Assembly: GCA_964443315.1 (NCBI GenBank)
Contig: CAYUCP010000003.1
Coordinates: 1-45,916 of the forward strand
DNA from: an uncultured Gammaproteobacteria bacterium
GTDB taxonomy: Bacteria; Patescibacteriota; Patescibacteriia; 2-12-FULL-60-25
Direction of reading: 5' to 3'
DNA: 45,916 bases
The first letter of the stretch is position 1, and each line of letters begins with the position of its first letter. Position numbers and translations under genes: made by a program. Shown here piece after piece: positions 4,372 to 39,741 of the stretch. Below the pieces are notes generated by a model that saw nothing but the letters and a program-made list of their open reading frames with translations, was not told the origin of the DNA and ran no database searches.

Positions 4372-4438
4372 CCGGATTCACTCCTCCTCATTTGCTTGCC
4401 CCGCCATGCGCATCCGGCGGGGCAAAGGAACAACAACG

Positions 4439-4729: not shown

Positions 4730-4732
4730 ACC

Positions 4733-5104: not shown

Positions 5105-5114
5105 GCAATAAATC

Positions 5115-11231: not shown

Positions 11232-11371
11232 TAGTTTGTGCCTCCAAAGGCGCGAACAATCACATCTTTCCACGCCACCCCGGAGTTGTTGTTCCCTAAC
11301 GGCACGGGGATATGATAAACAAGCCGCGCGTATGTCCCGCGCTGAACATCAAGTATGTGAACATTTGCCAT
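11231..11371 (-). CDS. Small protein (46 aa)
   Basis: MANVHILDVQRGTYARLVYHIPVPLGNNNSGVAWKDVIVRAFGGTN with a strong SD (gcaggagaaaa); below the track cut-off. Confidence 0.5.
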   Translation of the reverse strand: MANVHILDVQRGTYARLVYHIPVPLGNNNSGVAWKDVIVRAFGGTN

Positions 11372-11381
11372 TTTTCTCCTG

Positions 11382-13091
11382 CTAAATTGTCAAATCGCAC
11401 ACCGCCGCGGCGGTGAGAACAGCCACGCCCGTTCCGGTGATGGCGCTTATTTGCGCCTCCACGCTCACCGGCACGGTGATGGCAAAATCACTGTTGTTAA
11501 ACCCGCTCACGACCTGCGGTGTGATGGTGAGCGTGGCCGTCCCGGCGCTCAAAAGATTCACGCTGGCCGCATTCCCGCTTTTTGAGATGGTTGCCACCCC
11601 CGCGTTGCTGGTTGCAACGGAGGCGATGGTCTCTCCCGCGCTGCCGACCAGCGCGAGCGCGAGAGATGTGCCAGTTTTTCCGCTCAGGCTGGCAGGGGTC
11701 ACGCTGGGCCGGCTTACTTGTTTGAATCCAAACACATCCGAGCTTGCGCCCCCATCGTATTCAACGTAAAATATCCCGCCGTTGCACACAAAATCATCTG
11801 ATGCGTATGTGAAAGTAGCATTTCCCGATGTGTGCGTGATAACGCCACGCCGTGTTTCGTACGCGGATCCATCGCCCTTGTCAAACCAAGCCCGCACTTT
11901 TGTCACAGATTTCCCGGCCAGATTGGAAAACGTCATCAGCTGCGTTGTGTTGGTGTAATACGTGGCGGGGTTATTTAATGTGGGTTTAGAGGGTGTTGAG
12001 GATGTGACGGTCACGGTTACGCTGGCGGTGGCTGTGCTTCCATCCGCTCCGGTGGCGGTGATGGTGTATGTGGTTGTTGCGCTTGGCGATACTGTGCGCG
12101 AGTTTCCCGTGACTGTGCCGATGCCCTGATTGATGCTCACGCTGACCGCTTTTGTCACGGTCCACCGCAAAACCGTGGACCCGCCAGGGGGTATGGATGC
12201 GGCGTCGGCGGCAAATGAATCCACCCGCACATTGTTTGTTACGCTGCCCCCGCTGAGCGGAAACAGCGGATCAAATCCCGCGCCCTGCGCATCCACGCAG
12301 AATTTTTTGATAGTCGGCCAGTTTGCGGAGTGATTCATGGGAAACTCGCCGTCATAGTCGTTGTCAGCTATCCATGCGTACAGCCCGATGAGAGACAAAT
12401 TGCTCCCAAAAACCTCTTTTAGAACGCTCAAATAACCAGAATAAAGAGTGTCGCCAAACGGGGTGCTCTTTTCGGCAATTTCCTTGGCGCATCGCAGTTG
12501 CTTAAACGCTTGAATCACAAACCCGTATGAATATCCGCCCGCGCGGGTCAACCCCGCGGCCTCGCAGTTTTCTTTTAGCCATCGCGCCGCTTCCAGCACG
12601 GCATTGCCGCGTGTTCCTGCGCCATACGTGCGCAACGTGTTGATCCAGTCGCAGGCATTGTTTCCGTTGCAATACGCATCTACACTGTTAATGTTCGCCT
12701 TTACAGATGCGATAAATGGAACGCTCTCGGCGTTCGCGACAAGGTTCATCACAATTGGGATCGTGCTTACTTGGCGTATCGCATCTGCCATGTCTGTCAT
12801 TTGCGTCACGCTGATGCCGTTGAATGTCGGCTCGTCTGGCAGTAGCCAGAACTTAACTTTTGATGGGAAATACAGCATCCAATTCGCAATAATTGCTTTG
12901 GTGTCATCTTTGCTATACGCTCCGGCAAATTTTGGAATCACGGGTTTGTTGTATGTCGCAAGCCACGTCCGCACGCTTACATCGTTGATGTGATGCGCCT
13001 TGATGTCGTGCAGGTGGCATCCAAGCGCTCCCACCGGGTCGGTGTTGAGATAGTCGTTAAACGTCCAGGCAAAAATAGGTATATCGCTCAT
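11382..13091 (-). CDS. Tail-associated enzyme: N-terminal TIM-barrel-like glycoside hydrolase domain plus Ig-like (Big) repeats
   Basis: N-terminal about 290 aa contain WLLPDEPTFNG. These are followed by PPGGSTVLRWTVTKAVSVSINQGIGTVTGNSRTVSPSATTTYTITATGADGSTATASVTVTV and a Big2-like C-terminus. Confidence 0.5.
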   Translation of the reverse strand: MSDIPIFAWTFNDYLNTDPVGALGCHLHDIKAHHINDVSVRTWLATYNKPVIPKFAGAYSKDDTKAIIANWMLYFPSKVKFWLLPDEPTFNGISVTQMTDMADAIRQVSTIPIVMNLVANAESVPFIASVKANINSVDAYCNGNNACDWINTLRTYGAGTRGNAVLEAARWLKENCEAAGLTRAGGYSYGFVIQAFKQLRCAKEIAEKSTPFGDTLYSGYLSVLKEVFGSNLSLIGLYAWIADNDYDGEFPMNHSANWPTIKKFCVDAQGAGFDPLFPLSGGSVTNNVRVDSFAADAASIPPGGSTVLRWTVTKAVSVSINQGIGTVTGNSRTVSPSATTTYTITATGADGSTATASVTVTVTSSTPSKPTLNNPATYYTNTTQLMTFSNLAGKSVTKVRAWFDKGDGSAYETRRGVITHTSGNATFTYASDDFVCNGGIFYVEYDGGASSDVFGFKQVSRPSVTPASLSGKTGTSLALALVGSAGETIASVATSNAGVATISKSGNAASVNLLSAGTATLTITPQVVSGFNNSDFAITVPVSVEAQISAITGTGVAVLTAAAVCDLTI

Positions 13092-14287
13092 GTTAGTTTT
13101 AATACCAGCTTGTTTGCTGGAATTTGCGGCGGGGTTTGGCTGCTTTTAGTGAGCGCGTCCACATTTGGAACAACCCAGCATCGCGTTCCGCTGGCGCCAT
13201 CGCAAAGACCGATGCCATAGATCGGGATGGGCTGCGTGACCTGCGCCACATCCAGACTTGACAAGAAACTGTTGTTTGCGCCCGCCGCGCCCGCGCCCAC
13301 CGCGGCGGCGCAAATCATGATCCGGCCAGTCACAACCGGAAATGTGGACGTGTCGCGCGGGATTACGGCCTGTTTGTAATTTGTAAACGCGCTGAGGGCA
13401 ACCTCGCTTCCGTTCGCGTCCGTGAGAATCCCCACCCGATAATTTGCCCGCGTGAGGCTCATGTTGTTAAGCGCAACATTCAGATAATTGCGGGCCTCAA
13501 AATCTGTAAGCGCGTCCGCGTTAAACCGCGCCCTCATCCCGCCCGCCGGGATGTTGAATGTGCTGCCCGCGGCCACGCCGCGTTTGACCGCTCCGTTTGC
13601 CGGATCAAACTTTGCGCCAAACCAAAAATTGCCGCCGCTGGCCGCATCAAAAATGCCCCACCCCTCGATGTCGGCGGCCAACGCAAACCCCGTCCCGCTG
13701 CCTAGAAAAGAATCTGCCGCGCCTGCCGCGCCCGCCCCCGCGGCGATGGCATTTGCAATCTCGCGCCCGCTGGTCGCCAGCGGAAATTCGGTTGTGTTGC
13801 GGCTTTTGGCCGCCCGCTTGATGTTGCCCACACTGGCCGATGTGATCTCGGCGTAATCGTTTTTGTTGTTGATCCGGCTCATCAACGCAACGTAAATCGC
13901 GCTCGCGCTGGGAAGCGGCGTGGCGTTGAAAAAGTAATTCAACATCATCGCGCTGAAATAGTCGCTCACCACAAGCCCATCTCCCAACGTTTGAGCGAGG
14001 TCGCCATCTTGCGAGATGTTCAACTCAACTATCCGCGCCGCGCCTGCCGCGCCTGCATTCCGGCCACCGGCTATAAAAGGCATTTCTCGCTCATTCCAGC
14101 GCACCATCACCGCCGCGCCGGGGGCATACGTCGCGCCGCCAGGCATGGCTATATCCACCACGCTTGAATCGGCAAGCCTGACGCTGACCGTGCCGCCAGC
14201 CATGCGCAAAACAACCCCCGCCAGCGGCGCACGGCTGCCCTGCCGGTTGATGGCCCGGCCAAGCGATGAAGCGGGCAGCCTAGGCAT
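13088..14287 (-). CDS. Tail fibre-like protein with an internally duplicated domain
   Basis: 399 aa, Gly/Ala-rich, with two related segments (NYFFNATPLP... and NYLNVALNNM...); ATGA-type overlap downstream. Confidence 0.5.
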   Translation of the reverse strand: MPRLPASSLGRAINRQGSRAPLAGVVLRMAGGTVSVRLADSSVVDIAMPGGATYAPGAAVMVRWNEREMPFIAGGRNAGAAGAARIVELNISQDGDLAQTLGDGLVVSDYFSAMMLNYFFNATPLPSASAIYVALMSRINNKNDYAEITSASVGNIKRAAKSRNTTEFPLATSGREIANAIAAGAGAAGAADSFLGSGTGFALAADIEGWGIFDAASGGNFWFGAKFDPANGAVKRGVAAGSTFNIPAGGMRARFNADALTDFEARNYLNVALNNMSLTRANYRVGILTDANGSEVALSAFTNYKQAVIPRDTSTFPVVTGRIMICAAAVGAGAAGANNSFLSSLDVAQVTQPIPIYGIGLCDGASGTRCWVVPNVDALTKSSQTPPQIPANKLVLKLT

Positions 14288-17200
14288 CGTAGAACCCCCT
14301 CAGCTCCCACTGCCCTTTTAGCGCGTCCGGCGTGGCCGCCAGTGTTTTTTTTGTGATGACAAAATCGGTGGGCGGGAGTTGCGGCCATCCAGCGCCGGGC
14401 ATATATGAGATTGAGATCGCATCTTCGGGCTGGGCTTCGAGAATTCCAAATCCATCCATTGCCCGGCCCGCATATTGCTCTTTGAGACGACGCAGATAAA
14501 GCCGCGCTTCATCCACCGCTTGCGCCACTGTTTTTACCGCCCCCGCGCGGACGCTTACAAAACGATGGCCGTATTTCGCCAAAACGCCATCATCAATCCA
14601 TTCCCCGCTCGCGCCATCTCCGATGGCCTGCACCTGCCCGGCCATCGTCACCGAGTTCCCGCCGTGCGTGTCTCGCAGAATCAGCCCCGTCAACGGCGCG
14701 AGCGTATCGCGTTCCCAAAACGCGGAAAATTCAACGCCGCCATCTGCGGTGGCGCGATGACGCACATTGCGATCCCGCAGCAGCCCGTCTGCAATGATGC
14801 TGCTGATTGTTTGCTCATTCGTAAACGTGGTGTCGCCAATTTCTCCGCACAGCTCAATCATTCGCGCGGTGACGGTCTGAATAATCGGGCTGGAAATTTG
14901 AACCGGAGCGGTGTCGGTGTTCACGTATCCAATCGCTTCAAGATCAAATGTCCAAAGCGTTTGTCCCGCGCACTCCACGATGATCTCCGTGCCAGCGGCG
15001 ATAACGCGCAGGGCGATCTCGCCAACCAGATGGAAATCGCTCGCGGGCACATCCACCGCGCGCAAAACGCGCAGCCCGTTGGACGCGGCGATAACATCCT
15101 GAGTGGCGATCAGCCGGAGGGCGATCACACCCGGCGCGGGCTGAGAAAAGTCAACGCGATAATAGCCGCGCAGATATACGCTCAGCCACGTGTCTGCCGT
15201 TAGCGCAGCCGTCACGTCCATCGCAAAATCGCTCTGGTCGCGTTTTGAAATAGTCTTTGCCGTGTTTGCCTGCAACGTGGTTTGCAGAGTTCCCGCGTCT
15301 CTAAAACGCGGCTTGTGCATTCCGGCCAGGGCGCAAAATCGGGCGATTGCATCTTCCAGCGTGATAAATCGCCCGCTCCAAAATCCCGCTCGCTTTAGTG
15401 TGATCGCGGCGGGTTTCCCATCTGACCCTGCCGGATAGTAGGCCACCGGCTCATCTGGTTTGTGTGATGATTTTGGTGTGCCAAACGCCCCGCGCCCGCT
15501 GGCAATCACCATATCGCGCGGGTTCAGGTCGCCCTCGTATGTTGCCGCGCGCATTGCCCCCAGCGGCGTGTCGTATTTTGCCAGCGCGAGAGATGCGCCA
15601 GTTTTGCCAAACGCATACAGTTGTGTTTGCGTTTTGTCGTCTTCCGCGCTGAAATAGCCGTTGTCGCCCGAATTGCGGGTGGTAAGTTCGACCAAATCGC
15701 CAGCCCGAACCGCGCCAAATGGATCGCCCGCGTCCGGCGCGATGGCAGAAATCGGGCCATACTGCTCGCCCGGCAAAAAATATTTTGTCGGCGCGTGCAG
15801 CCATGTTTCAGTGATCGCGTAATTTGCGGATGTCAAATTCTCGCGCCACGCGGTGAAGCTCGTTTCCTCGTATCGAACGATCTCTTTTGCGCATATCATG
15901 TAACGGGCGCGGGAAATCCCGTTCGGCAACCCGTAAAAGCTCGCGGGCTTTTTGGCGATGAGCGCGGCCCGGCCAATGATGCGCCATGCGCTTGGCTCGC
16001 TTCCGCCATACCCCGGAGAACCGGACGGGATGGGGTTTGTAGGGTCCCACCCGCTGTTCATCAAGAGATGATTCACGCCATCAGACAGCACTAATCGGTC
16101 TGAATGCGCAGTGTTGTCGTCCGAGCTAATCCGGGCCGCCATCCCAATTTCCAATGCCGCGCGAAGAGCGTGAGGGTTGAGATGCAGCGTCAAGTCATCA
16201 CCAACTACTTTTTCTGTTTTCGCAGACGTGCACCAGGCATATCCATCCCCGGAACGGATGAACGCCTGACCGCTTATAACCCGGCTGTACACATCAAGCG
16301 CGGCCCCAAACTCATCAACTGTCGCGCAAGATATTTGCGTGTCGCCGATGATGTTTGTCACTGCGCGGACGTGGTTGTTAAAGCGCAATTTTTGGCCGAT
16401 ATGAACTTCGCTTGTAAACAGTGTCCCAACGCCGGTGACGGTGGCATTCACGCTTCCAGGCGGATATTCCACTTCTGTGACGACCCCTGTGAGCGGGGTG
16501 AGGTATGCGCTCGCCCGCGCCCCGTGCTTTGTTTGCGCGTCGCTAAGCTGCGCCTCTATGTCTTTGTAAAACGCACCCGCAAACGCGGTTTTGCTGGCAA
16601 AAACATCGTGCGCGAGAACGATGCCGCAAAATGGCCGCGCCCCATGCGCACGGCGGGTGATGCGGCTAAAACGAGCGCGGGTGATCAGCGTGTATTTTGC
16701 GTTCGCGGCGCATCCCGCGTAACTTTTGTCGCGCGGTTTGGCGTATATGCAGATGTATTCGCCAAACATCCGCACCGCAATTTCTGTGTCTGCGCCAGCG
16801 GGAATGCTGTAATCATTGTCAGTTGGGTAGGCCGCGTCCGCATCTTCAGTGATGGCCGTCGTCTCGCCGACCGCTTCGACCAGCGGCGACATGCGCTCCG
16901 CAACATCCCATCCCGCCGCGCCCAGCTTAAGTTTGCGCAAACGCGAGCGGGTTTGAGTGTGGCCCGTCCAGCTTGATTGTTTCGGAATGATCAAAACGTT
17001 GCCAGACGCGCTCAACCCATCGCCAGCGTCCACCGCGCCAAACACAACCCCAACCTGCCCGCGATGGTATTCATCATCGCAATCAGCCCGCACGATCAAC
17101 TCTGTCAGGAAATCTTCGTGCGCAAATGCGTCAAAATAAGCAAAAAAGGGATCGTTTAGTCCATCGTGCCGCAGCCCGCCCCCATCAACAATTCCCCACG

Positions 17201-30579: not shown

Positions 30580-31162
30580 AAATCTTATTAAGCGCGGCGG
30601 TAAACTCCGGCGACAATCCGCCCTGCACCTTTACCGCCCCGCCGTCCTTGCCGGTGAGTTCCTGACGGGTTACGCCAACGGGCATTTCAAGAACGCCGCG
30701 CATAAATTCGCGGGCGGTTTTCAGCATATCCGCCGCCTTTCCAAATTCACTGGCATGGGCGGGCGCAAACACAATCGGGCGTCCTTGCTCGTCCTTTGCC
30801 GTCGCCATGCGCTCGTTTAAGGCAAGCAGCTTTAGCGCCTTTGTTTCAAGCGCGTCCGCATGCCGCAGCTCCCGGTCTAATTGCTCCTCGCGCAATCTCT
30901 CGCGCCGAATAGCCCATTTCCGTTCCCGCTTTTCGCGTTCCTGCTGGCGGATGGCGGCCATGTGCGCATCGTAGGCGGCGGAACGGTCAACCCAATCGTG
31001 GCGCGTTGACCACGTGCGCCAAGTGCCGTTTGTCTTTCCGTTTTTATTCCGCTTTTGATACGCCGCATCAATACTGCGCTCGTCAAATTCAAGCGTGTAA
31101 TAAGCCTCAAACGCGGCATAGGCTTCTTTGCTCTCGCCCTTGCGCCGCTCCCATGCGTTCAT
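30560..31162 (-). CDS. terS: Terminase small subunit (putative)
   Basis: 200 aa, basic coiled-coil centre, immediately upstream of and overlapping terL. Confidence 0.55.
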   Translation of the reverse strand: MNAWERRKGESKEAYAAFEAYYTLEFDERSIDAAYQKRNKNGKTNGTWRTWSTRHDWVDRSAAYDAHMAAIRQQEREKRERKWAIRRERLREEQLDRELRHADALETKALKLLALNERMATAKDEQGRPIVFAPAHASEFGKAADMLKTAREFMRGVLEMPVGVTRQELTGKDGGAVKVQGGLSPEFTAALNKIYGGANG

Positions 31163-32709
31163 TGTAATAATTTAGGCGTTTTCCCGGTTGCGTCGACCCA
31201 CCGCTGCAACGCAACTGCCACATAGGCTGGAGAGATTTCTATGGCGCGGCATTTGCGGCCTGTATTTTCTGCACCCATTAAAGTTGACCCACTGCCTCCG
31301 AAAGGCTCCACGCATATTCCGCCCTTGGGCAAACTTGAAAGCATGACGCGCTTCATCATCTCAACGGGTTTCGGCGTGGCGTGGCCGTGGCGTTCTTCTC
31401 CAGTGACGCGAGGAAATGACCAAACATCTGCCATGTTGTCGTGCGTGTTGTCGAAGTGTGCGCGTGTTGAATAAAATTCCCGCTTGAGGTCGTCGTATTC
31501 CCGCTTGAGGTCGTCGTATTCCCGCTTGAAAGCGTCGTATTCCCGCGCTTCTTTTTGCAATCTTTTATATTGGTCTTCCGTTGGAAAACTCCACTGGCTT
31601 TTACTAAACCAATGGTCTGCCATTCTTGGATGAAAACCAAAAAAGTCGGCGACCACTTTATTTGTCCACCCAACCTTTTTTCTTTCTCCGTCAAGATATA
31701 ACCGTATTTTTTCAAACCCCTCCCAATAGTTGTCCGCGTTGTTATTAAATCCCTGCTCGCCAAGCATGAAGAAAAGGCACCGCTCCGACACGGTTGGAAA
31801 CATTCGATGATCGGCGGAGCCTATGCCTTGCCCGTGGCCCTTATCCCACACGATTTCGTTGCGCATCGTTAGGCGCTCGCTGTTTTTTAGCCCGCCGCAA
31901 TACCAGAGTCGCCAGAGGTTTTCAGCGTTTCCCCAGATGTAAGCGCTGGCGTTGTCTTCGGTGTGTGGCCGAAAGGCTTGCCACCATGCCATTTGGAAGG
32001 CGTCCAACTCCTCGCGGTAGAGGTTGTCATTTTCTACCCCGTCCTTTTCTTTTCCCATTCCATACGGCGGGTCTGCGTGAATGAGTTGCGCCTTCTCTCC
32101 GCGCATAAGGTTCGCCACATCCTCCTTCTTCGTGCTATCCCCGCACAGCAACCGATGGTCGCCAAGCTCCCAAAGCTGCCCCGTCTCGACACCCCACTTG
32201 GCGCGGAGTTCTTCGGCTTTGTCAATTTGCGGTTCTGCGTCAACGTTGCTATTTCCGCCCGTATTGCTCTCTTCCTCTTGCGCGGATTCAATCATCGCCT
32301 TTAGTTCATCATCACGCACAAAATCGCTCAAATCATCTGCCTGCGCCGCTGACAGCAACGCCTGAGCGTCCCACGCCAAATTTTGCGCCCCAACCTGATT
32401 GTCCGCAAATGCCAGTTGCCGCGCGCGCGGGTCGTCTGGGTCGGCCATATCCAAATCCGTGCGTTGCACCACAATTAACTCCGTCCCATCCGTCTCAATT
32501 ACGCGCACCTTGCCTATGCCCAATTCGCCAGCCACTTCGGTGGTTTTATTGCCCGCAATCAGTGTTCCATTTTTGTCCGCCAGAACCGAGCGGCCAAGCC
32601 CCAGCTTGCTCACGGACGTTTCCAGTAAATAACGCCCGCGTTCCGTGCCTTTATTGAGATTGGCTGCGTCTGGCGTCAAATCGGCAATGGTTTTAATCTT
32701 TTTGGTCAT
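31159..32709 (-). CDS. ParB-like N-terminal domain fused to an N4/N6 DNA methyltransferase
   Basis: Start at MTKKIKTIADL (ATGA overlap upstream). IHADPPYGMGKE (motif IV) and EPFGGSGSTLMGAE (AdoMet site). The N-terminal about 150 aa are ParB-like (GLGRSVLADKNGTLIAGNKTTEVAGELG). Confidence 0.8.
   Translation of the reverse strand: MTKKIKTIADLTPDAANLNKGTERGRYLLETSVSKLGLGRSVLADKNGTLIAGNKTTEVAGELGIGKVRVIETDGTELIVVQRTDLDMADPDDPRARQLAFADNQVGAQNLAWDAQALLSAAQADDLSDFVRDDELKAMIESAQEEESNTGGNSNVDAEPQIDKAEELRAKWGVETGQLWELGDHRLLCGDSTKKEDVANLMRGEKAQLIHADPPYGMGKEKDGVENDNLYREELDAFQMAWWQAFRPHTEDNASAYIWGNAENLWRLWYCGGLKNSERLTMRNEIVWDKGHGQGIGSADHRMFPTVSERCLFFMLGEQGFNNNADNYWEGFEKIRLYLDGERKKVGWTNKVVADFFGFHPRMADHWFSKSQWSFPTEDQYKRLQKEAREYDAFKREYDDLKREYDDLKREFYSTRAHFDNTHDNMADVWSFPRVTGEERHGHATPKPVEMMKRVMLSSLPKGGICVEPFGGSGSTLMGAENTGRKCRAIEISPAYVAVALQRWVDATGKTPKLLQ
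31479..31541. repeat. 21-bp tandem repeat x3 inside the methyltransferase gene
   Basis: cccgcttgaggtcgtcgtatt twice, then cccgcttgaaagcgtcgtatt; encodes KREYDAF-KREYDDL-KREYDDL. Confidence 0.95.
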
Positions 32710-32987
32710 CTGGCTGTTTCCTTCTCCAAGATTTTTATCGCCTCGCCCGCGCCAAACACCACAAACACGGACGCCCGCGCCTCGTTGTGCCACCTCGCTT
32801 CGTCTGGCGTGAGTTTCCCGCCGGGCGACTTCACCTCGAACACAAACCACTTGCCGCGAAACGAGACCAGCAAGTCCGGGCACCCATCGCCTATATTTGC
32901 AATAGATTGCACGAATGCACCCATGTCACGTAATGCGCGCACAATCTCGGACTGGTTAGCGTCAACTTTTCCGTATATGCGCATCAT
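32706..32987 (-). CDS. VRR-NUC / PD-(D/E)xK nuclease
   Basis: GCPDLLVSFRGKWFVFEVKSPGGKLTPDEARW; start coupled to the lysin stop. Confidence 0.65.
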   Translation of the reverse strand: MMRIYGKVDANQSEIVRALRDMGAFVQSIANIGDGCPDLLVSFRGKWFVFEVKSPGGKLTPDEARWHNEARASVFVVFGAGEAIKILEKETAR

Positions 32988-34627
32988 TACCCCTTTGGCT
33001 TCATCGCCTTGCGCAATGCCCGCGCCCCAACCCATGCGCCGGCCTTCACAAACGGCGCTGGGCCAAATCTGCGGACGTCATAGCCATTGGCCCAGCGCGG
33101 GTCACCGTTATTGCCGTAACAAAATATCGCACCACCGCGCACAGGCGATGGATACTCGCGCCCGTCCACCACCACCGGACGGGATTGAATCTCTACCACC
33201 CGCGCGATGTGTTTTGTTACATCTTCAGTGGTTGCTTTGTGCGCGGGCAGTCCGCCCACGCCCTCCTCATCCACGCCGCACTCACCAAAGAACACACCCT
33301 GCCCCTTGTCCGGCGCAAACCCGCACACGGTAAAGTAAAACTGCCAGCGGCGTTCGTGCCAGACCAAATCTTCGTCGTAAATATGCGCCATGCTCGGCGC
33401 GTAGGCGTGATAGTCAAGTCCAATTTCGCCCGCGTCCCACAATGGCGTGTAATACTGCCGAATGAGCCGCACGGTGTCGGCGTATTCAGGCGCGCCCAGC
33501 GCAAATTGCGGGTTTCCCACACTGAACGTGCCAAGCGCGATAACAGCCTTGCATTCCATCGCCCGCGCCTTGCGCACGAACTCCACTTCCACCCTCATGC
33601 GCTCTTCCAGCTCGCGCGGCGATGAACCCCAGCTATCGGCCTCGTTGAACAACGTCAAAACCAAATTGGACGGCATATCGGCAGACACGCCAAGAGCGCG
33701 AATAAAGTCGTCCGCCGTCCATCGGGAGTTGCCAATATAGACACGAGACATGCAATACCCGTCGGGGTGATTGCGCGCAAAATCGGCGGCCTCTCTGTTG
33801 GCGCCCATCACCAGCGCGAATTTGCAGCCGGCCCGCTCGGCCTCGGCCAGAGCGCCGGTGTCGGTGATAACGTTCACCCCAACCAAAACCTTGCGCGGCG
33901 CGGCCACAACCGGTGCGGGTTGCGCCGTTCTGGCGGCGAGGTAGTCGGACTTCACCCATCCCTTGGCCCAGCTCGGCGGCTCATCTACAAGCTGAATCCG
34001 CGACCAGCCACTTTGTTCCTCCACCACCGTCATGGCTCGCCCCTCGCCCATCACCCCAATTTTTTGCGCGTTGATGGCTCCAGAGGCGCGGACATTCACA
34101 CCCATACCATCCGTTCCGGTGACAATCAGCGCGGCGGGCAAACTTCGCGCAGTGTCGCGGATGCCAACCTTGACTACAAACCCGCCCCAGTATTTACCCG
34201 CACCGGTTCTGATGGCCGTATCCAGCGTAGCCGCGTCCGCCACATGGTTGCCGTGCGCGGCATACGGGTCATGATATTCGGTGTCGCTCAGGCGCACAAT
34301 CCAGTGCCCAAATGTGCGCCCGCTTTGGTCGTAACGTTGCGCTACTGGCAACATCGCATAGTCAACCAGCGCGATGCAAGGGTAAGGCGCGACAGGCGAA
34401 AGAATCGGGTCGCATCCCATCTTTTTTAGCATGGCCGCCAGTTCATTAGCGGTCGTGCCGTTGTCCTCCGCGTCAATCTGGCGCGCGGTGGGCAGTTCTT
34501 TGCTCCATTGCTCCACCGTGTCGGTCAGCCCCTTGCCGACTGACCGCGCCAGCATGAGGGCGCAAGCCGGGCCGCAGTCGTTGCGCGGCGCATTGTTGAG
34601 CTGAGAAATAAAAGGAACGGTTGTCAT
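32987..34627 (-). CDS. Three-domain lysin: papain-like (C39-like) cysteine peptidase, SH3b, and clan GH-A-like glycoside hydrolase
   Basis: NDCGPACALML...GHWIV for the peptidase. GVNVRASGAINAQKIGVMGEGRAMTVVEEQSGWSRIQL...GWVKSDYL for SH3b. TLFNEADSW and FFGECGVD look like GH-A acid/base and nucleophile motifs. Confidence 0.65.
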   Translation of the reverse strand: MTTVPFISQLNNAPRNDCGPACALMLARSVGKGLTDTVEQWSKELPTARQIDAEDNGTTANELAAMLKKMGCDPILSPVAPYPCIALVDYAMLPVAQRYDQSGRTFGHWIVRLSDTEYHDPYAAHGNHVADAATLDTAIRTGAGKYWGGFVVKVGIRDTARSLPAALIVTGTDGMGVNVRASGAINAQKIGVMGEGRAMTVVEEQSGWSRIQLVDEPPSWAKGWVKSDYLAARTAQPAPVVAAPRKVLVGVNVITDTGALAEAERAGCKFALVMGANREAADFARNHPDGYCMSRVYIGNSRWTADDFIRALGVSADMPSNLVLTLFNEADSWGSSPRELEERMRVEVEFVRKARAMECKAVIALGTFSVGNPQFALGAPEYADTVRLIRQYYTPLWDAGEIGLDYHAYAPSMAHIYDEDLVWHERRWQFYFTVCGFAPDKGQGVFFGECGVDEEGVGGLPAHKATTEDVTKHIARVVEIQSRPVVVDGREYPSPVRGGAIFCYGNNGDPRWANGYDVRRFGPAPFVKAGAWVGARALRKAMKPKG

Positions 34628-35508
34628 CTGCGCATCTCCAGAATCGGGATGTCCATCTGCCCGACAGATTGCATCCCGGCATTTGCAACGCCAACGTCAA
34701 ACGCGGACTGAACGTTTTTCCCTTCGGCCAGCGCCATGTAAAACCCATCAGAAAACCCGATGGCGGATGGGTCTTGCACCGCCTTGCGCATCCCCACCGC
34801 CCACTGCGAAACACTCATCAACGGAGCGAGGTTTTGAGCGGAATAACAAGCATTGAGAACCACTCCAGTCACGGGCATGGGTTTCAAAAGGCGCGAAATG
34901 GCTTCCAGCGTGACGGCTTTTGGCTTTTGCGTCTCATCTTCCAGGTAAATTTCTCCGTCAGCGCCATGTCCCGCAAAATGCAAAATGGTTGGGCGAAAAT
35001 CTAAAATGGCGCGGGTGATGTCGTGCGGTCGCGCGGCCTGTATCGCCCGAAACTCGAACCCTGTCTTGCGTAGAGCGTCCTCTACCACCCGCGCTTCCAC
35101 ACCGGTGTTGAGAATCGCGCCGGGCATGGATGAAGTAGACACGAAAAGAACAGCGCGGCGCGAGGCGGCGGAAGAATTTTTCTGCGATGACTTTTTGCCT
35201 GTTACCTGTTCAAACAAAAACTCCACCCGACTGCGCAAAGCCGCGTTCTCATTTTCGAGATCGGCGATTCTGCGTTTCAAGCCATCTATTTCCAGTAAAA
35301 ACGTTTCTTTTTCGGCTTTCAAGGTGTCTTTTTCGGCTGCGAGGGTTTTGTTTTGCTTTAGCAACTCCTCGTTCTCTTTTTTGTAATACCTCACCACCTC
35401 ACCCCCGTCCTCTCCGCCCTTCCGCTGAAACGGTTTCAAAAACAGCACGGCGGTTAAAACGAGCAGCCCAATCAGAGATATGACACCGAGAATTACCCCC
35501 AAATCCAT
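34624..35508 (-). CDS. Membrane-anchored coiled-coil protein with a C-terminal CHAT-like (caspase-fold) domain
   Basis: Start at MDLGVILGVISLIGLLVLTAVLFL (TM helix). Coiled coil at ELLKQNKTLAAEKDTLKAEKETFLLEIDGLKRRIADLENENAALRSR. Then ILHFAGHG and VVLNACYS (His/Cys dyad positions) and GFYMALAEGKNVQSAF. Confidence 0.6.
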   Translation of the reverse strand: MDLGVILGVISLIGLLVLTAVLFLKPFQRKGGEDGGEVVRYYKKENEELLKQNKTLAAEKDTLKAEKETFLLEIDGLKRRIADLENENAALRSRVEFLFEQVTGKKSSQKNSSAASRRAVLFVSTSSMPGAILNTGVEARVVEDALRKTGFEFRAIQAARPHDITRAILDFRPTILHFAGHGADGEIYLEDETQKPKAVTLEAISRLLKPMPVTGVVLNACYSAQNLAPLMSVSQWAVGMRKAVQDPSAIGFSDGFYMALAEGKNVQSAFDVGVANAGMQSVGQMDIPILEMRR

Positions 35509-35831
35509 CACACCTCTCCTTTGCCACGATGAATTACAAGTAACACGTAGCCAAGAAAGGTGATGATGCCGTGCAAATAGGCCAGTGTTGCCCACATTTC
35601 AATCATGCCGCCCGGTAAAAAGTGCGTTCCCCAAAGATTTAAGTCCAGCACCAGCACCACGTAAAGCCGATAGATAAAAACATGCGCGGCCATCGTCAAC
35701 GCTGCTAGCAAGTCGCGGCCATCAACGATACGCTTTCTCCAGGCATAAACAAGACAGGCAAACAGTCCGCCCGCCGCCAGCGCCACGACCAGTCGCATAA
35801 ACATCAAAACATCAAAATCCGCCGCGCTCAT
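35508..35831 (-). CDS. Three-TM membrane protein (holin-like)
   Basis: 107 aa with three hydrophobic helices, sitting in the lysis cassette. Confidence 0.5.
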   Translation of the reverse strand: MSAADFDVLMFMRLVVALAAGGLFACLVYAWRKRIVDGRDLLAALTMAAHVFIYRLYVVLVLDLNLWGTHFLPGGMIEMWATLAYLHGIITFLGYVLLVIHRGKGEV

Positions 35832-35834
35832 TGC

Positions 35835-36605
35835 CTACCCGACCTCCACCTGTGGCTCTTGATCAAATCCGCCCTTGCGCAAAAGCGTGCGGCACCGCGC
35901 CAAAATCTGCGCGTCCGTGCCGCGTTTGGCGGCGGCGTTCAACCACGCATAGGTAAACGCCCCGCACGGCTTGCCGCCAATCACTGCATCGGCGGCGGTC
36001 TGATCGGCCCGGCACGCGCTCCAAATTCGGCGGTTGATGCGGCCCGCCCGTTCCAGCTCTTTCACGCGAGACGGCGTGAGCAGGCCGCGGGGGCGCGGCT
36101 GGGTAATGGCGCGGCCATCGGGCTGGGGAAGGTATCGGATGGCATAGTGCAACGCCGCGCGGCTTACCGTGCCGCTGTGGCACGAATCGGCCCACATTTG
36201 CACGTCCACATCCGCAGGAAAGCTGGCCAGCCATTTGTTAATGTCGTCATCCACAAGAAGCTGCACCCATCGCCCGTTTGCGACGTGGGTGTCCCACGTC
36301 GCAATAGCCTCGTCCCATTTGTCTGTCTCGTCCGCGTTTTTGTCCGGCACCTGCGTGCCGTGCGAGGAGATGCTGAAGGCGATACGCTTCACTTCGCTAC
36401 GCTGAGCGGCAATCGCGGCCCGGCCCATCCATTCCGCGATGCGCGCCAAGCCAGCCGCTTCTCCGGTGGCCGTTTGCACCTCGTAGCCCGCTTTGGCGAG
36501 GTAGTCGGCCATGTTACGCATGTCGTTTTCGCACCCGTTCAGGCGCGGAATTTGCGGGCTGAGAAATGCGTTGAGGCCCACACACAGGGCGATGCTGTCA
36601 TTCAT
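35835..36605 (-). CDS. Peptidase C14 metacaspase/orthocaspase-like protease
   Basis: Start at MNDSIALCVGLN with a ggagg SD. FSISSHGTQ supplies the catalytic His, ADSCHSG is the hallmark Cys motif, and the p10-like SACRADQTAADAVIGGKPCGAFTYAW follows. Confidence 0.75.
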   Translation of the reverse strand: MNDSIALCVGLNAFLSPQIPRLNGCENDMRNMADYLAKAGYEVQTATGEAAGLARIAEWMGRAAIAAQRSEVKRIAFSISSHGTQVPDKNADETDKWDEAIATWDTHVANGRWVQLLVDDDINKWLASFPADVDVQMWADSCHSGTVSRAALHYAIRYLPQPDGRAITQPRPRGLLTPSRVKELERAGRINRRIWSACRADQTAADAVIGGKPCGAFTYAWLNAAAKRGTDAQILARCRTLLRKGGFDQEPQVEVG

Positions 36606-36951
36606 CTTGCGCCTCCGGTGGCTGAATATCATCCGGGAATTTACCGATGATGCGCACGGGGATGGTTGTGCTATTCCCACCCCATGCACTTGTTCGCGCG
36701 GTTGGGGTTTTAACATTCAACCCGCGCGAGGTGAGTTCGCGGCTGATGGCGCGTTGCACCAGTGGCTCAGCCTCATCGTTGATGGTGAACGCCACGATCA
36801 ATAGCCCCACAATCGGCTGGGCGATAAGCCAAATCTGGTGCAGCATGTCTGCCGCGTCTGGCGCGGCGTATTTGCCCGCCACCAAAAACACAATTTTTAC
36901 GATGGCATCCACCACCGCCGTGATGAATGCGCGGGATTTAAGCAATTTCAT
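36598..36951 (-). CDS. Holin-like protein (two TM helices)
   Basis: AFITAVVDAIVKIVFLVAG and IWLIAQPIVGLLIVAFTI, followed by a charged C-terminal tail. Confidence 0.5.
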   Translation of the reverse strand: MKLLKSRAFITAVVDAIVKIVFLVAGKYAAPDAADMLHQIWLIAQPIVGLLIVAFTINDEAEPLVQRAISRELTSRGLNVKTPTARTSAWGGNSTTIPVRIIGKFPDDIQPPEAQDE

Positions 36952-37324
36952 TCGCGGCCTCCAAATCCTTGTAAATCACGGCCATGCCAGCCTCGACCAG
37001 CTGGGTGTTCACGCTCTTGTCCTCGCCGTCCAGCCACACCTCGGCCAAAACGCGCCCGTGCTGGTCGCGGCTGTTCTTGACGACCAGCGTCACCGGTTTG
37101 TCGCCCAACTTTTCCTTGAGCCATGCGGTGGCTTTGTCGCCATTGGATGTTCCCGCCGGCGGCGCGTCCACGCCAGTGAAACGCACATATTCGCGCATAG
37201 ATACTTTTGTCCATGCGGGCAGCCCGACATCCGCCACGATGGTGTCGCCATCCACCACCCGGACATTGGCCGCCGGGCAAATGGAGAGCGCGGCAGACGC
37301 GGCTTTGAGGATTCCGTTAAGCAT
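36938..37324 (-). CDS. Staphylococcal nuclease (SNase)-like thermonuclease, probably exported
   Basis: VRVVDGDT...VRFTGVDAPP...QHGRVLAEVWLDG...NTQLVEAGMAV; hydrophobic N-terminus MLNGILKAASAALSIC. Confidence 0.7.
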   Translation of the reverse strand: MLNGILKAASAALSICPAANVRVVDGDTIVADVGLPAWTKVSMREYVRFTGVDAPPAGTSNGDKATAWLKEKLGDKPVTLVVKNSRDQHGRVLAEVWLDGEDKSVNTQLVEAGMAVIYKDLEAANEIA

Positions 37325-37616
37325 ATTTCACCTTCTTTTTTGCGTTGGCGAGGGCGTGCCGCTCTGCGTGGCAACAGTCGCACAACACCTCTAAATCTTG
37401 TGGTTGCTCATCGCCCAGGTGGGCGTATGTTTTGTGATGAACTTCCAGCCCGCGCGTGTTGCCGCACTCGTGACAACACCCACCAGCGAGGGCAATGGCT
37501 TTCTCGCGCGTTTCCTGCCAGTGCGCGGTTTTCAAATAAATGGCGGCGTAATTCCGGCGACGCAGTTTCGTTATCTGCGCGTCAACCCAACGAAACATCC
37601 ACATCCGCCAGTCCAT
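37317..37616 (-). CDS. HNH endonuclease
   Basis: CCHECGNTRGLEVHHKTYAHLGDEQPQDLEVLCDCCHAERH; start coupled to the upstream stop. Confidence 0.8.
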   Translation of the reverse strand: MDWRMWMFRWVDAQITKLRRRNYAAIYLKTAHWQETREKAIALAGGCCHECGNTRGLEVHHKTYAHLGDEQPQDLEVLCDCCHAERHALANAKKKVKYA

Positions 37617-38170
37617 CACTTCACCGCCTTCATGCCTTCGCTCACGGCGATGGCATACCGCCACGCGCGGGCGCAAATACCGCCCGCCCGCGCAAATGCT
37701 GGCATGGCGCGGCTGTCGCGCCCGCCGCCGATGACGCACTTAGACGTGCCGCCGTTGTAAACGCGCAGGGCGCACATCAAATCTCCCTTGCAGTAGCGGT
37801 CGCGGTTCTCGCGCAAAATCTTTGCGGCGGCGTAGACGTTTGCCTGCGCATCCATGAGTTCAATTGTGGTGGGGCGGTCTGTGAACCACACGCGAGGCAG
37901 TAGCGTAGTATCGCGCGGCACAATCTGCGCCAGCCCAATTTCACCACTCGCGCCGATGAAATCACCCTGACACCGACTTTCTTTCCACACAATCGCCCAC
38001 ACCGCCGCGCGCGGGATGCCCGTTTGCTTTTCAAACAATTTCAAGGATTCATCTGCAAACGAGTAGGCCGCGATGCAGTGATTCACGTCTGGGCGCGGCG
38101 TGGCCGCGCTGGCCGCGTTGGGGTGCGCGAAAATGAAAGCGAAAGTTAAAAGCGCGAGAATAAATCTCAT
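37616..38170 (-). CDS. Secreted lytic transglycosylase (SLT domain)
   Basis: Signal-like MRFILALLTFAFIFAHPNAASAA; WKESRCQ...GLAQIVP...VYNGG. Start at 38170 because the longer ORF would run through a terminator. Confidence 0.7.
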   Translation of the reverse strand: MRFILALLTFAFIFAHPNAASAATPRPDVNHCIAAYSFADESLKLFEKQTGIPRAAVWAIVWKESRCQGDFIGASGEIGLAQIVPRDTTLLPRVWFTDRPTTIELMDAQANVYAAAKILRENRDRYCKGDLMCALRVYNGGTSKCVIGGGRDSRAMPAFARAGGICARAWRYAIAVSEGMKAVK

Positions 38171-38175
38171 AAAGT

Positions 38176-38224
38176 GAAAAACAAAAAAGCGCGGCTGGCA
38201 CAATCTCTTGTGCATCAGCCGCGC
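38176..38224 (-). terminator. Rho-independent terminator upstream of the SLT gene
   Basis: Stem gcgcggctg/cagccgcgc (38189..38197, 38216..38224) with an inner gcacaa/ttgtgc stem, followed on the minus strand by ttttttgttttt. Confidence 0.65.
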
Positions 38225-38269: not shown

Positions 38270-38494
38270 TTATTCTTTCGCGGGCATCATAGCCGCGCCA
38301 AGCGGCAACTGTATTTTTGCGCCCCGGCGCTCAATAGCCGGGGTTAGCTCTCGCGCATTGTGGATGGCCAGGCTTAACACCACCGTGCCAGACAAATCAC
38401 CGCCCGTGCGCAACAAATCGCGCACGGCAATCATGCACATGCGTTCAAGTTCGGTTTTTGCGGAAACAGCTGCCACGCCATAAATATAGCACAT
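38270..38494 (-). CDS. Hypothetical protein
   Basis: 74-aa ORF. Confidence 0.45.
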   Translation of the reverse strand: MCYIYGVAAVSAKTELERMCMIAVRDLLRTGGDLSGTVVLSLAIHNARELTPAIERRGAKIQLPLGAAMMPAKE

Positions 38495-38579
38495 CCGTTC
38501 TGCCTGTCAATAATCAACTGCCCTATGCCGCGCAACTCGGCGGCGGCAACATCTCAGATGGCATCGAGATTGCCCTGCG

Positions 38580-39014: not shown

Positions 39015-39022
39015 TTCAAGCT

Positions 39023-39051
39023 ATTGTATTGATTTCTAGCTATAAAGTCAA
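39023..39051 (-). promoter_or_regulatory. Promoter of the leftward block (leaderless geometry)
   Basis: Minus strand reads TTGACT (39051..39046), 17-nt spacer, TACAAT (39028..39023), then 8 nt to the ATG at 39014. Confidence 0.6.
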
Positions 39052-39057
39052 GGGAAC

Positions 39058-39073
39058 CTAGCCACTTGGCTAG
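39058..39073. promoter_or_regulatory. Operator-like inverted repeat CTAGCCA-ct-TGGCTAG
   Basis: Perfect 7-bp arms between the divergent promoters. Confidence 0.5.
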
Positions 39074-39096
39074 TATTTTCAAAAATTGCTGTGTTA

Positions 39097-39139
39097 TTGT
39101 CAATTTTGCTATTGACAAGATTTATTTTATAGCTATAAT
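39097..39139 (+). promoter_or_regulatory. Promoter of the rightward orphan operon with an overlapping inverted repeat
   Basis: TTGACA (39112..39117), 16-nt spacer, TATAAT (39134..39139). The inverted repeat ttgtcaat-N6-attgacaa (39097..39118) covers the -35 element. Confidence 0.65.
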
Positions 39140-39179
39140 ACGACCATCAACCAAAAATAAAAAAAACAAGGAAAATAAA

Positions 39180-39377
39180 ATGACAAAACAAGAAGCCAAA
39201 AAACTCGCAAAAGAAGCCATCGAAAATGCAACCCCGCAAGGTTACGATGTTGCTGGTTTAACAGTTGTGTATCTTGAAAAGAACGGCAAGTATGCCGTTG
39301 CCGACAACGGAGAGGAAGTCGGAAACCTCGATCGCAACAATGCAATCCGCATTATTGTTGAGAATCTAACCAACTAA
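39180..39377 (+). CDS. Hypothetical protein (65 aa)
   Basis: ATG at 39180 preceded by caaggaaaa; AT-rich. Confidence 0.55.
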   Translation: MTKQEAKKLAKEAIENATPQGYDVAGLTVVYLEKNGKYAVADNGEEVGNLDRNNAIRIIVENLTN

Positions 39378-39431
39378 AAACCAACGCGCGACCTGTTGAA
39401 AAAGAAAGCATAAAAATATTTCTTCCCGCAG

Positions 39432-39647
39432 ATGAGCTTGAGCCTGCGGGAAATGGAGGAAATCATGGAAGAGCTGCACGACAAAAGAACCATCAAAATC
39501 AACGATAAAACATATCAAATCGCGGTTTCCCGCGAGGCATACTCCCCAGATAAATTGAAAGTCTGGGGGCATGGCAAAGAGTGGTGTCAGCGTTCAGATG
39601 AAACACGCGCCGAATTTGTCCAGCGCGTCAAGAGCGATACTAAATAA
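39432..39647 (+). CDS. Hypothetical protein (71 aa)
   Basis: ORF in the operon. Confidence 0.5.
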   Translation: MSLSLREMEEIMEELHDKRTIKINDKTYQIAVSREAYSPDKLKVWGHGKEWCQRSDETRAEFVQRVKSDTK

Positions 39648-39656
39648 CAAAAATTC

Positions 39657-39687
39657 GCCCCGCCGATGATGCAGTCACCGGCGGGGC
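39657..39687 (+). other. Intercistronic GC-rich stem-loop
   Basis: gccccgccg (39657..39665) pairs with cggcggggc (39679..39687); same arm family as 3775..3799 and 4397..4424. Confidence 0.6.
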
Positions 39688-39741
39688 ATTTGAGAGGGAT
39701 TAACTCTCCCTCGCATTCTAAAGCAAAACAGAGGGATTAAC

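Follow-up and report, generated by a model that had tools for sequence, protein, structure and literature searches.

Phage lysis is usually explained by holins and endolysins, joined in diderm hosts by spanins or disruptins, and proteases have no part in this scheme. The caspase-like and CHAT proteases of prokaryotes are known from the side of the host, where they execute abortive infection as parts of gasdermin, type III-B and III-E CRISPR and Thoeris-type systems. Contig CAYUCP010000003.1, analyzed here over positions 1 to 45,916 (the window), carries a leftward gene run in which a C14 protease and a CHAT protease are interleaved with small membrane proteins directly ahead of a probable endolysin. 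We propose that the region is a lysis ("exit") block in which two competent clan-CD proteases have become fixed as accessory lysis factors triggered by the holin, a reading to which we assign a probability of roughly 0.45. The C14 and CHAT enzymes themselves are ordinary members of their families; the novelty lies in their setting, with death proteases of clan CD placed within the lysis cassettes of phages and one protease joined to a membrane stalk of lysis type.

Among described systems, the SAVED-CHAT/PCaspase pair from Haliangium ochraceum's type III-B CRISPR/CBASS hybrid system shares with this locus a compact CHAT domain, aligned His and Cys residues, and a C14 gene in the same operon. 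SAVED-CHAT is activated by oligomerization and is able to activate a C14 enzyme (Steens et al., bioRxiv 10.1101/2023.06.23.546230). However, SAVED-CHAT has a SAVED sensor where the phage CHAT protein has a transmembrane (TM) helix and a coiled coil, and the phage cassette is without the CRISPR, CD-NTase, sigma-factor, kinase and inhibitor genes of the Haliangium system; profile scans of the open reading frames (ORFs) of the window found no cyclase or CRISPR gene. The phage proteases also differ from the SAVED-CHAT/PCaspase pair in being phage-encoded, in lying in a lysis block and in not being obligately linked to each other, and the phage C14 protein is one of the standalone GSU0716/3bij-like family, with only a weak match to the caspase model of PADLOC. 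Bacterial gasdermin operons resemble the locus in placing a clan-CD protease beside membrane-permeabilizing proteins and in the concept of a pore licensed by proteolysis. The membrane proteins of the phage are instead helical TM proteins of 107-117 amino acids that are viral and would serve lysis rather than abortive host defense. No cassette protein matched a gasdermin in Pfam and PADLOC scans, after which gasdermin-like and defense-system readings were dropped.

On the lysis side, LysF1b is a single-TM, N-out/C-in, holin-like protein required for efficient mycobacteriophage lysis (PMC13056207). The phage CHAT protein resembles BhlA, XhlA and LysF1b in its N-terminal TM helix, cytoplasmic coiled coil, predicted N-out/C-in topology and position beside a multi-TM holin-like gene and an endolysin gene, and protease-free relatives of the lysin carry BhlA/XhlA/LysF1b-like proteins at the equivalent place. 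It differs from these proteins in that its stalk bears a 175-amino acid CHAT domain, exchanged in the related locus L027 for a domain resembling Effector-associated domain 7 (EAD7), and in that it has no match to the Pfam Holin_BhlA and XhlA models at E values up to 0.1; its PHROG match to "hol-like chemotaxis" (E 1.5e-5) is at the level of the coiled coil only. The block is also comparable to the lambda S-R arrangement, with a class I-like protein (three TM helices) and a class II-like protein (two TM helices) that have charged C termini, a wall hydrolase without a signal sequence, and a place at the start of the late operon, ahead of the genes for terminase. It departs from lambda S-R in the interleaving of a nuclease as well as two cysteine proteases, and in that the membrane proteins fall into no known holin family.

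Two clan-CD proteases with aligned catalytic dyads

The C14 gene (35835..36605, on the minus strand like the rest of the run) encodes a protein of 256 amino acids that had been called a soluble metacaspase from its SSHGT and DSCHSG motifs, and this call is borne out by Pfam, PDB and AlphaFold-Foldseek comparisons and by the alignment of its His/Cys dyad. The protein scores 59.4 bits against Pfam PF00656 (cut-off 21.4, E 5.6e-16) and matches the bacterial caspase-like structure PDB 3bij with an E value of 5e-19. Its AlphaFold model (predicted template-modeling score, pTM, 0.81) retrieves 3bij, AtMC9, AtMC4, TbMCA2, caspase-9 and MALT1 as top Foldseek matches, with E values from 2e-14 to 1e-6, and also retrieves the yeast metacaspase. 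The catalytic residues, His82 of SSHGT and Cys142 of DSCHSG, are in register with those of 3bij and of the Candida metacaspase 7qp0, and together with Arg157 they are invariant in an alignment of 20 sequences of the family. An acidic cluster (D88, D92, E93, D95, D98, E99, D105, D119 and D120) is likewise invariant and aligns with acidic residues of 7qp0, a type I metacaspase; it is a candidate for the Ca2+ site and the basic-P1 pocket of metacaspases. Residues ~147-190, immediately after Cys142, are predicted to be disordered in the AlphaFold model, as expected for a p20-p10 linker, and no signal peptide is found. By alignment and predicted fold, the protein is therefore a metacaspase/orthocaspase-like clan-CD caspase-fold protease with an aligned dyad.

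The fold and the His/Cys dyad are common to the phage C14 protein, the standalone caspase-family proteins of ~275 amino acids typified by GSU0716 and 3bij, and the type I and type II metacaspases, and all of these show an acidic cluster after the His, a disordered linker after the Cys and a conserved Arg. The phage protein is ~35-40% identical to the GSU0716/3bij-type cellular family. Unlike that family, the phage C14 clade (at least 46% mutual identity) is confined to the lysis block, and its members are slightly shorter, at 252-256 amino acids, and lack the C-terminal extension of the cellular proteins. Distant C14 homologs (up to 40% identity) are standalone cellular genes whose neighbors are uninformative.

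The CHAT gene (34624..35508) encodes a protein of 294 amino acids in which the original prediction had recognized a CHAT pattern, ILHFAGHG followed by VVLNACYS. The protein scores 42.7 bits against Pfam PF12770 (cut-off 24, E 6.2e-11). Its best solved relative is PDB 8tl0 (E 2e-9), a CHAT protein of 496 residues that we take to be the SAVED-CHAT of Haliangium, and its best PADLOC model is SAVED_CHAT (E 1.6e-8). In the alignment with 8tl0 the His of GHG falls on chain position 355 and the Cys of NAC on position 402, which would correspond to H375 and C422 with a common offset of 20. The H375A/C422A double mutation inactivates SAVED-CHAT (bioRxiv 10.1101/2023.06.23.546230), and the predicted pattern thus aligns with a validated dyad. 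His181 and Cys221 of the phage protein are invariant across 18 CHAT homologs, and the protein is by these comparisons a true clan-CD caspase-fold protease with an aligned dyad.

The CHAT protein begins with a TM helix (residues ~4-24), which has basic residues on its C-terminal side, and continues through a coiled coil (~35-105, with coiled-coil profile matches at residues 37-116) and a low-complexity linker to the CHAT domain (~120-294). Pfam and PADLOC scans found no SAVED domain in residues 1-115, the region occupied by the TM helix and the coiled coil, and PF18145 is carried only by a distant CHAT homolog (P0171). The closest cellular relatives (P0166-P0172, at loci L016-L019) are cyanobacterial proteins of ~265 amino acids with an N-terminal coiled coil and no TM helix. 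The genes of two of them (P0166 and P0167) adjoin a gene with an FGE-sulfatase domain; these cyanobacterial coiled-coil-CHAT proteins are not from phages and were set aside as uninformative for the role of the phage protein. A scan of 185,579 species-representative GTDB genomes with the CHAT protein, in which only close relatives are detectable, gave no true relative, a match in a Geobacter metagenome-assembled genome (MAG) proving to be spurious coiled-coil similarity, and the species representatives accordingly give no sign of a copy in a cellular genome or a prophage.

The gene run as a probable phage lysis cassette

Five genes make up the core of the run: those for a 2-TM protein of 117 amino acids (36598..36951), the C14 protease, a 3-TM protein of 107 amino acids (35508..35831), the CHAT stalk protease and a probable endolysin of 546 amino acids (32987..34627). 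The 2-TM and C14 genes overlap by 8 nucleotides, the C14 and 3-TM genes are separated by a 3-nucleotide gap, the 3-TM and CHAT genes overlap by 1 nucleotide, and the CHAT and lysin genes overlap by 4 nucleotides; the ORFs, coordinates, junctions and motifs of the original prediction were all reproduced on re-examination. A GGAG/GGAGG-type Shine-Dalgarno sequence precedes each start in the run. These features indicate that both proteases are co-translated with the lysin.

The 117-amino acid protein has two TM helices, a predicted N-in/C-in topology and a charged C-terminal tail of ~60 residues that is Arg-rich, partly conserved and probably cytoplasmic, and that contains the conserved motif RAISRELTSRG. 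The 107-amino acid protein has three TM helices, a predicted N-out/C-in topology and a short basic C terminus ending in HRGKGEV. His50 in its second TM helix and His87 in its third are invariant, as are three tyrosines inside TM helices. Instead of being just a holin, the protein may be a partner that senses protons or the proton motive force (PMF). In every variant of the locus, the gene next upstream of the TM-coiled-coil stalk gene is the 3-TM gene. An exhaustive HMMER search of 1.84 billion proteins found only three representatives of the 3-TM family, all from this cassette type, and a scan of IMG/VR with the 3-TM alignment returned known loci only. Both proteins had been described as holin-like. 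The description holds for architecture, both having the size, TM number, charged C terminus and place in the coupled run of the lysin that are typical of holins; it does not hold for family homology, neither protein having a Pfam or PHROG holin match.

The lysin consists of an N-terminal papain-like domain (Peptidase_C39_2-like, a weak match of 18.2 bits against a cut-off of 24), an SH3_3 wall-binding domain (31.5 bits, cut-off 27) and a C-terminal TIM barrel of clan GH-A; the interdomain linkers, which contain Arg and Lys, are modeled with low confidence. The C-terminal ~300 residues have a GH5 mannanase as best Foldseek match (E 3.6e-5, TM-score 0.55 on the target). The barrel contains invariant N328-E329 and E449 and has no Pfam match, and it seems to represent a glycoside-hydrolase-like endolysin domain not described before. 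Relatives of the lysin keep the SH3 domain and the barrel and swap the N-terminal domain for Peptidase_M23 (P0133-P0136) or Peptidase_C39, the N-terminal peptidase being C39-like, M23 or missing, and such modular domain shuffling would be typical of an endolysin family. In all contexts examined, the lysin homologs are encoded by phages, beside small TM genes and upstream of terminase.

By its content, its position and comparison with relatives, the block is very probably a phage lysis cassette, and this assignment is well supported. The 546-amino acid protein and an SLT lytic transglycosylase encoded further upstream are the only wall hydrolases recognized in the window, the 117- and 107-amino acid proteins are its only small multi-TM ORFs, the block lies just upstream of TerS and TerL, and it is conserved in divergent relatives. 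It is for these reasons that we regard it as a lysis block, and the placement of the proteases in a lysis module, as first proposed from the five genes, stands.

Conservation, insertion, and dissociation of the proteases

The gene order SLT, (HNH), SNase, 2-TM, C14, 3-TM, TM-coiled coil-CHAT and lysin is kept in relatives with C14 identities of 46-87% to the window. The C14 proteins are 87% identical in L107, 52% in L002-L007, and 46% in L001 and L022-L024, and the search for the same synteny in viral metagenomes that the original prediction had called for has thus found the order recurring. A metagenome scan with a narrower alignment contributed a single further close relative (L135), besides a match at L138 that is weak and partial. 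Ratios of nonsynonymous to synonymous substitution (dN/dS), computed against L107 at 87-90% protein identity, are 0.19 for C14, 0.089 for the whole CHAT protein and 0.055 for its CHAT domain, 0.165 for the lysin and 0.21 for the 117-amino acid protein. The C14 and CHAT genes are under purifying selection. In L107 the block stands beside a different terminase and has a Gp23/S77-type capsid module downstream (10629-14771), and the block therefore behaves as a mobile unit common to otherwise mosaic phages. A short way upstream of the block, the other strand of the same contig encodes a patatin-like phospholipase (4066-5040).

Three loci (L008, L012 and L014) encode homologous lysins without proteases. 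At or near the equivalent place they have two small genes, the first for a protein of ~95-99 amino acids with two or three predicted TM helices and the second for a coiled-coil protein of 76-102 amino acids. The coiled-coil protein has a predicted N-terminal TM helix in L012 and a hydrophobic stretch below the hydropathy threshold in L008 and L014, and the L014 protein reaches 22.1 bits against Holin_BhlA, for which the cut-off is 22.6. Because the lysin homologs of protease-free phages are accompanied by ordinary small-TM genes, the proteases are lineage-specific additions to an ordinary cassette of Gram-positive style, and the CHAT protein looks like a stalk protein onto which a protease has been fused.

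The two proteases also occur separately. L027 (IMGVR_UViG_3300029242_000003) and L028 have 85-88% nucleotide identity on both flanks and no similarity across the 3-TM and stalk genes. The L027 stalk gene (4862-5476) encodes a TM helix and coiled coil followed by a helical domain of ~60 residues that is not CHAT and that matches EAD7 weakly (20.7 bits, under the cut-off of 32), and C14 is retained. Conversely, L112 and L113 have the 3-TM protein, a TM-coiled coil-CHAT protein (43% identity), a lysin homolog, HNH and SLT, and no C14; the contents of L112 between 2263 and 6658 are a 2-TM protein, lysin, 3-TM protein, TM-coiled coil-CHAT, HNH and SLT. In L115 (3126-5564) a lysin with M23-like, SH3 and GH-A domains is followed by a standalone CHAT protein of ~190 amino acids, again without C14.

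These variants bear on the possibility that the locus is a cascade of the SAVED-CHAT/PCaspase type, in which a membrane-tethered CHAT initiator would cut the linker of a C14 zymogen and C14 would act as a broad-specificity executioner. The best matches of the CHAT protein are to SAVED-CHAT, in both PDB and PADLOC, the C14 and CHAT genes lie in one translationally coupled run, and the phage C14 protein has a disordered linker of ~40 residues after Cys142 together with the conserved Arg157 and PRGL. An obligate CHAT-to-C14 cascade was our first idea after the 8tl0 match. It was downgraded because L027 has C14 with an EAD7-like domain where CHAT would be, and because L112, L113 and L115 have CHAT beside a lysin without C14. 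Moreover, the cellular C14 homologs stand alone yet have the same linker and Arg157, and the match to the PADLOC caspase model has an E value of only 1e-4. The joint working of the protease pair is evidently not required; an obligate cascade is unlikely, and we consider a SAVED-CHAT/PCaspase-type mechanism in general an unlikely account of the locus.

C14 proteases beside lysins in other viruses

A scan of IMG/VR with the single C14 protein gave no match, and an alignment-based scan gave 118 stretches with C14 relatives. Eighty loci were kept, including four of this phage group; after removal of these and of loci without a called C14 ORF, the remaining 68 C14 loci formed 40 clusters at 50% identity, in counts that reflect crude ORF calls. 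Many viral C14 loci are in giant viruses or on very large contigs with unrelated neighbors. In four other clusters, less than 50% identical to the C14 of this group and with the His and Cys kept, a lysin lies directly beside C14. In L031 (4193-6394) 1-TM and 2-TM proteins are followed by C14 and then by a GH108+PG_binding_3 protein; in L033 (3693-5165) a TM-anchored C14 protein, whose basic residues put the C14 domain in the cytoplasm, is followed by a GH24 Phage_lysozyme; in L053 (4361-6561) Amidase_3 is followed by C14 and a 2-TM protein of 78 amino acids; and in L081 (3947-6506) CHAP is followed by C14. A Pfam census of 115 neighbors of viral C14 genes recognized at least three lysin families, with the CHAP of L081 a fourth. 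Within the L053 cluster, which has 14 loci, C14 and a 2-TM gene of ~77 amino acids are co-conserved (47-79% identity) and the upstream gene varies. The adjacency of C14 and lysin is a recurrence and not a proven statistical association.

In four of the viral C14 loci (L047, 5927-6394; L053, 6085-6561; L090, 3055-3543; L081, 5733-6506), a nearby downstream gene encodes a secreted protein of 155-257 amino acids that has a Sec-type signal peptide and whose last residue is aromatic, and which might be an outer-membrane beta-barrel-like lysis component; the L047 and L053 proteins matched no family.

The recurrence is informative about a second possibility, that the proteases license lysis by proteolysis, trimming the tail of a holin or antiholin (for example at RAISRELTSRG) or cutting the linkers of the lysin and so setting the timing of lysis. 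The tight pairing of protease and membrane protein, 2-TM with C14 and 3-TM with TM-coiled coil-CHAT, is in keeping with this, as are the exchange of the 3-TM and stalk genes as one unit between L027 and L028, the long Arg-rich and probably cytoplasmic tail of the 117-amino acid protein, and the Arg and Lys residues in the low-confidence interdomain linkers of the lysin model. However, other viral C14 genes are accompanied by tailless 2-TM proteins of 73-78 amino acids and by single-domain lysins of 179-191 amino acids, and no cleavage-site motif could be defined. Processing of the lysin, one of the roles first suggested for the proteases, is unlikely to be general when unrelated viral C14 genes adjoin such small lysins, and licensing as a whole seems improbable to us.

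Neither cultured phages nor the searchable literature yielded a precedent, in line with the original prediction, which knew of no caspase-fold proteases in a phage lysis module. A nucleotide search with the block of 50,697 GenBank phage records gave no match; in the same records the CHAT protein had no match, and the C14 protein had one, at 30% identity, in an unannotated 485-kb uncultured phage. Significant caspase-fold matches in BFVD (E up to 0.001) with a listed source were all from giant viruses or an ascovirus. A search of the published literature for caspases, metacaspases or CHAT proteins in phage lysis cassettes found nothing relevant; all that came near the topic were the metacaspases of giant viruses and, in a preprint on mycobacteriophages, a protein annotated as CHAT.

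Flanking genes and genome context

The tight packing reaches beyond the five genes first described. An SLT lytic transglycosylase gene (37616..38215; Pfam SLT, E 9.9e-11), whose product has one N-terminal hydrophobic segment as a Sec-type signal or anchor, is the first gene of the conserved block and heads it in L001, L002-L006, L022 and L107. It is followed by genes for an HNH endonuclease (37317..37616; PHROG HNH, E 2.5e-9; probable start ATG 37616) and a staphylococcal-nuclease-like nuclease (SNase, 36938..37324; Pfam SNase, E 2.7e-12; PHROG endonuclease, E 6e-21). Homologs of the HNH protein, of 100-101 amino acids, are present in L022 and L107, and the L002-type block is without HNH; the SNase gene is directly upstream of the 2-TM gene every time. 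SLT and HNH overlap by 1 nucleotide if HNH starts at ATG 37616, HNH and SNase by 8 nucleotides, and SNase and the 117-amino acid gene by 14 nucleotides. At the other end, a VRR-NUC/Holliday-junction-resolvase-like nuclease gene (32706..32987; Pfam and PHROG matches), which overlaps the lysin gene by 1 nucleotide if it starts at its probable ATG 32987, is the downstream edge of the packed run and is neighboring context outside the lysis function. The block constantly includes the SNase homolog and the SLT with its signal peptide, and with the lysin and the proteases these resemble an "exit toolkit" for wall, DNA and protein.

A promoter-like site, TTGACA-16-TATATT with a TG (38483..38510, minus strand; 11/12 match in a consensus scan), lies upstream of the leftward block and possibly marks the start of the late, or exit, operon. 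Given the close packing, this site upstream of SLT and the lack of any convincing terminator inside the run in the promoter and terminator scan, we infer a single late transcription unit, read leftward, that spans SLT through lysin and probably continues into the genes for packaging.

The window as a whole is the genome of a tailed phage, complete or near-complete by appearance, with TerS, TerL, portal, head-morphogenesis, major capsid, tape-measure and tail-fiber-like genes on the minus strand. Elsewhere it encodes two methyltransferases, one of them fused to ParB, together with an FtsK-like ATPase and a protein with a weak match to replication-initiator families; no tRNA gene was found in the window and no integrase among its ORFs searched. 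The nearest IMG/VR relative is a contig of 46,241 bp. The phage is probably siphovirus-like with a filamentous Chloroflexota host, the names on relatives pointing to this phylum through a Thermoflexales MAG (GCA_035426025.1) and an Anaerolineae MAG, as evidence at the level of binning only. In the ParB-methyltransferase gene (31159-32883) a ParB-like N terminus is fused to an N6/N4 DNA methyltransferase, with a short tandem peptide repeat (KREYDDLKREYDDLKREF) inside; the Arg/Gly-rich extension at the N terminus of its longest ORF is probably untranslated. The interval 39020-39690 is a divergent control region: the plus strand has a perfect TTGACA-16-TATAAT site (39112-39139), the minus strand has two promoter-like ones (39103-39075 and 39051-39023), and a strong hairpin with a 14-bp stem (39688-39656) is terminator-like.

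A model for the proteases in lysis

Our reading of the region as a lysis block with two accessory proteases starts from what is established here: the protein identities, the catalytic residues, the conserved synteny, the purifying selection, the co-translation with the lysin and the independent recurrence of C14 and of CHAT genes beside lysins in other phages. Each protease is constantly accompanied by a small membrane protein, the soluble, metacaspase-like C14 protease by the 2-TM protein and the CHAT protease by the 3-TM protein. The CHAT protease would be held on the cytoplasmic face of the membrane by its BhlA/XhlA/LysF1b-like TM and coiled-coil stalk. Both proteases would be made late and would stay inactive in the cytoplasm until the holin fires; that both face the cytoplasm is suggested by the lack of a signal peptide in C14 and by the basic residues C-terminal to the TM helix of the CHAT stalk. 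The trigger for CHAT may be clustering or oligomerization in the membrane through the coiled coil and the 3-TM partner, on their assembly or on PMF collapse, as oligomerization is what activates SAVED-CHAT. For C14 the trigger could be Ca2+ entry through the holin lesion, release into the wall compartment, autoprocessing in the disordered linker, or more than one of these. Metacaspases are typically Ca2+-dependent, and an ion-influx trigger is plausible because C14 has kept the metacaspase acidic cluster. Once activated, the proteases would cut proteins of the host or of the lysis machinery and so make killing and the breakdown of the envelope fast and irreversible, and they would act in parallel without an obligate cascade. 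C14 is found with several different types of lysin and holin, which makes a specific phage lysin seem a less likely substrate than a host protein or some generic target in the envelope or the cytoplasm.

Several points weigh against this reading. The block also holds the HNH, SNase and VRR-NUC nucleases, and its position alone is no proof of a role in lysis. The 117-amino acid protein is class II-type holin-like and the 107-amino acid protein class I-like in architecture only. The stalk is probably N-out/C-in, with the protease in the cytoplasm, by the positive-inside rule only, and Ca2+ gating of C14 would follow from the alignment of its acidic residues to those of metacaspases. Beyond this phage group, a small-TM neighbor is present in 23 of the 40 C14 clusters against a background of 39%, a modest enrichment, and a recognized lysin is adjacent in 4 of the 40.

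The late position of the genes and their neighbors also bear on whether the proteases could be counter-defense or host take-over enzymes that are merely placed in the late operon, where they would cut caspase-, CHAT- or EAD-based immune or death effectors. Such conflict systems are abundant in multicellular bacteria, and Chloroflexota, the phylum to which the host probably belongs, is filamentous. The C14 and CHAT families come from the repertoires of cellular conflict systems (PMC7159879), in which EAD7 is an adaptor that recruits effectors, and in L027 the CHAT domain is swapped for a weakly EAD7-like one; the same article mentions neither holins nor prophages. However, expression together with the lysin is late for an anti-defense factor, the genes adjoin lysins and holin-like genes in several unrelated phages, and the CHAT protease is tethered on a TM-coiled-coil scaffold of lysis type, all of which leave counter-defense with little likelihood.

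A further alternative would move C14 across the membrane, as an extracytoplasmic "second lysin" that leaves through the holin lesion and cuts the S-layer, the sheath, wall-anchored proteins or basic residues of the stem peptide. Like canonical endolysins, C14 is signal-less and encoded between holin-like genes, it takes an endolysin-like position in the L053, L031 and L081 cassettes, and the block carries other exit enzymes, the secreted SLT and the SNase; the high Ca2+ requirement of metacaspase-type enzymes would also be satisfied outside the cell. Nevertheless, the L033 C14 protein is membrane-anchored, with its domain placed in the cytoplasm by basic residues, the CHAT partner is predicted to be cytoplasmic, and a cysteine protease would be unusual in an oxidizing environment. 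To our knowledge no clan-CD peptidase cuts peptidoglycan, and a direct action of C14 outside the cell is accordingly quite improbable. An abortive-infection or superinfection-exclusion cassette, expressed from a prophage as a defense moron, is highly improbable: caspase-like and CHAT proteases are known defense effectors and L107 has the patatin gene just upstream of its block, but Pfam and PADLOC find no SAVED, NTPase or TIR sensor domain and no gasdermin-like gene, neither a promoter nor a terminator belongs to the cassette itself, which is translationally coupled into the run toward the packaging genes, there is no integrase among the ORFs searched, and no relative appears in the 185,579 species-representative genomes, among which only close relatives are detectable.

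A more general proposal can be made, although it is one that we put forward tentatively and regard as somewhat doubtful. Clan-CD proteases may be a recurrent and hitherto unrecognized class of lysis-cassette component, recruited independently on several occasions from cellular death and immunity repertoires, each with a dedicated membrane protein and triggered when the holin makes the membrane fail, the CHAT protease being in this lineage also fused on an exchangeable stalk of the BhlA/LysF1b type. Lysis would then be a protease-executed program akin to caspase-driven death and not purely a holin and endolysin event, and the stalk would be an exchangeable scaffold for effectors, bearing CHAT in most of the variants and, in L027, an adaptor that is EAD-like. 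The natural variants, with C14 only, CHAT only, an adaptor-like swap or neither protease, make the question testable by simple genetics, and compact membrane-triggered protease modules would become available for study and engineering. If phages do exit their hosts with such enzymes, lysis cassettes would gain a new functional class, and one death-protease toolkit would serve both sides of the conflict between phage and host.

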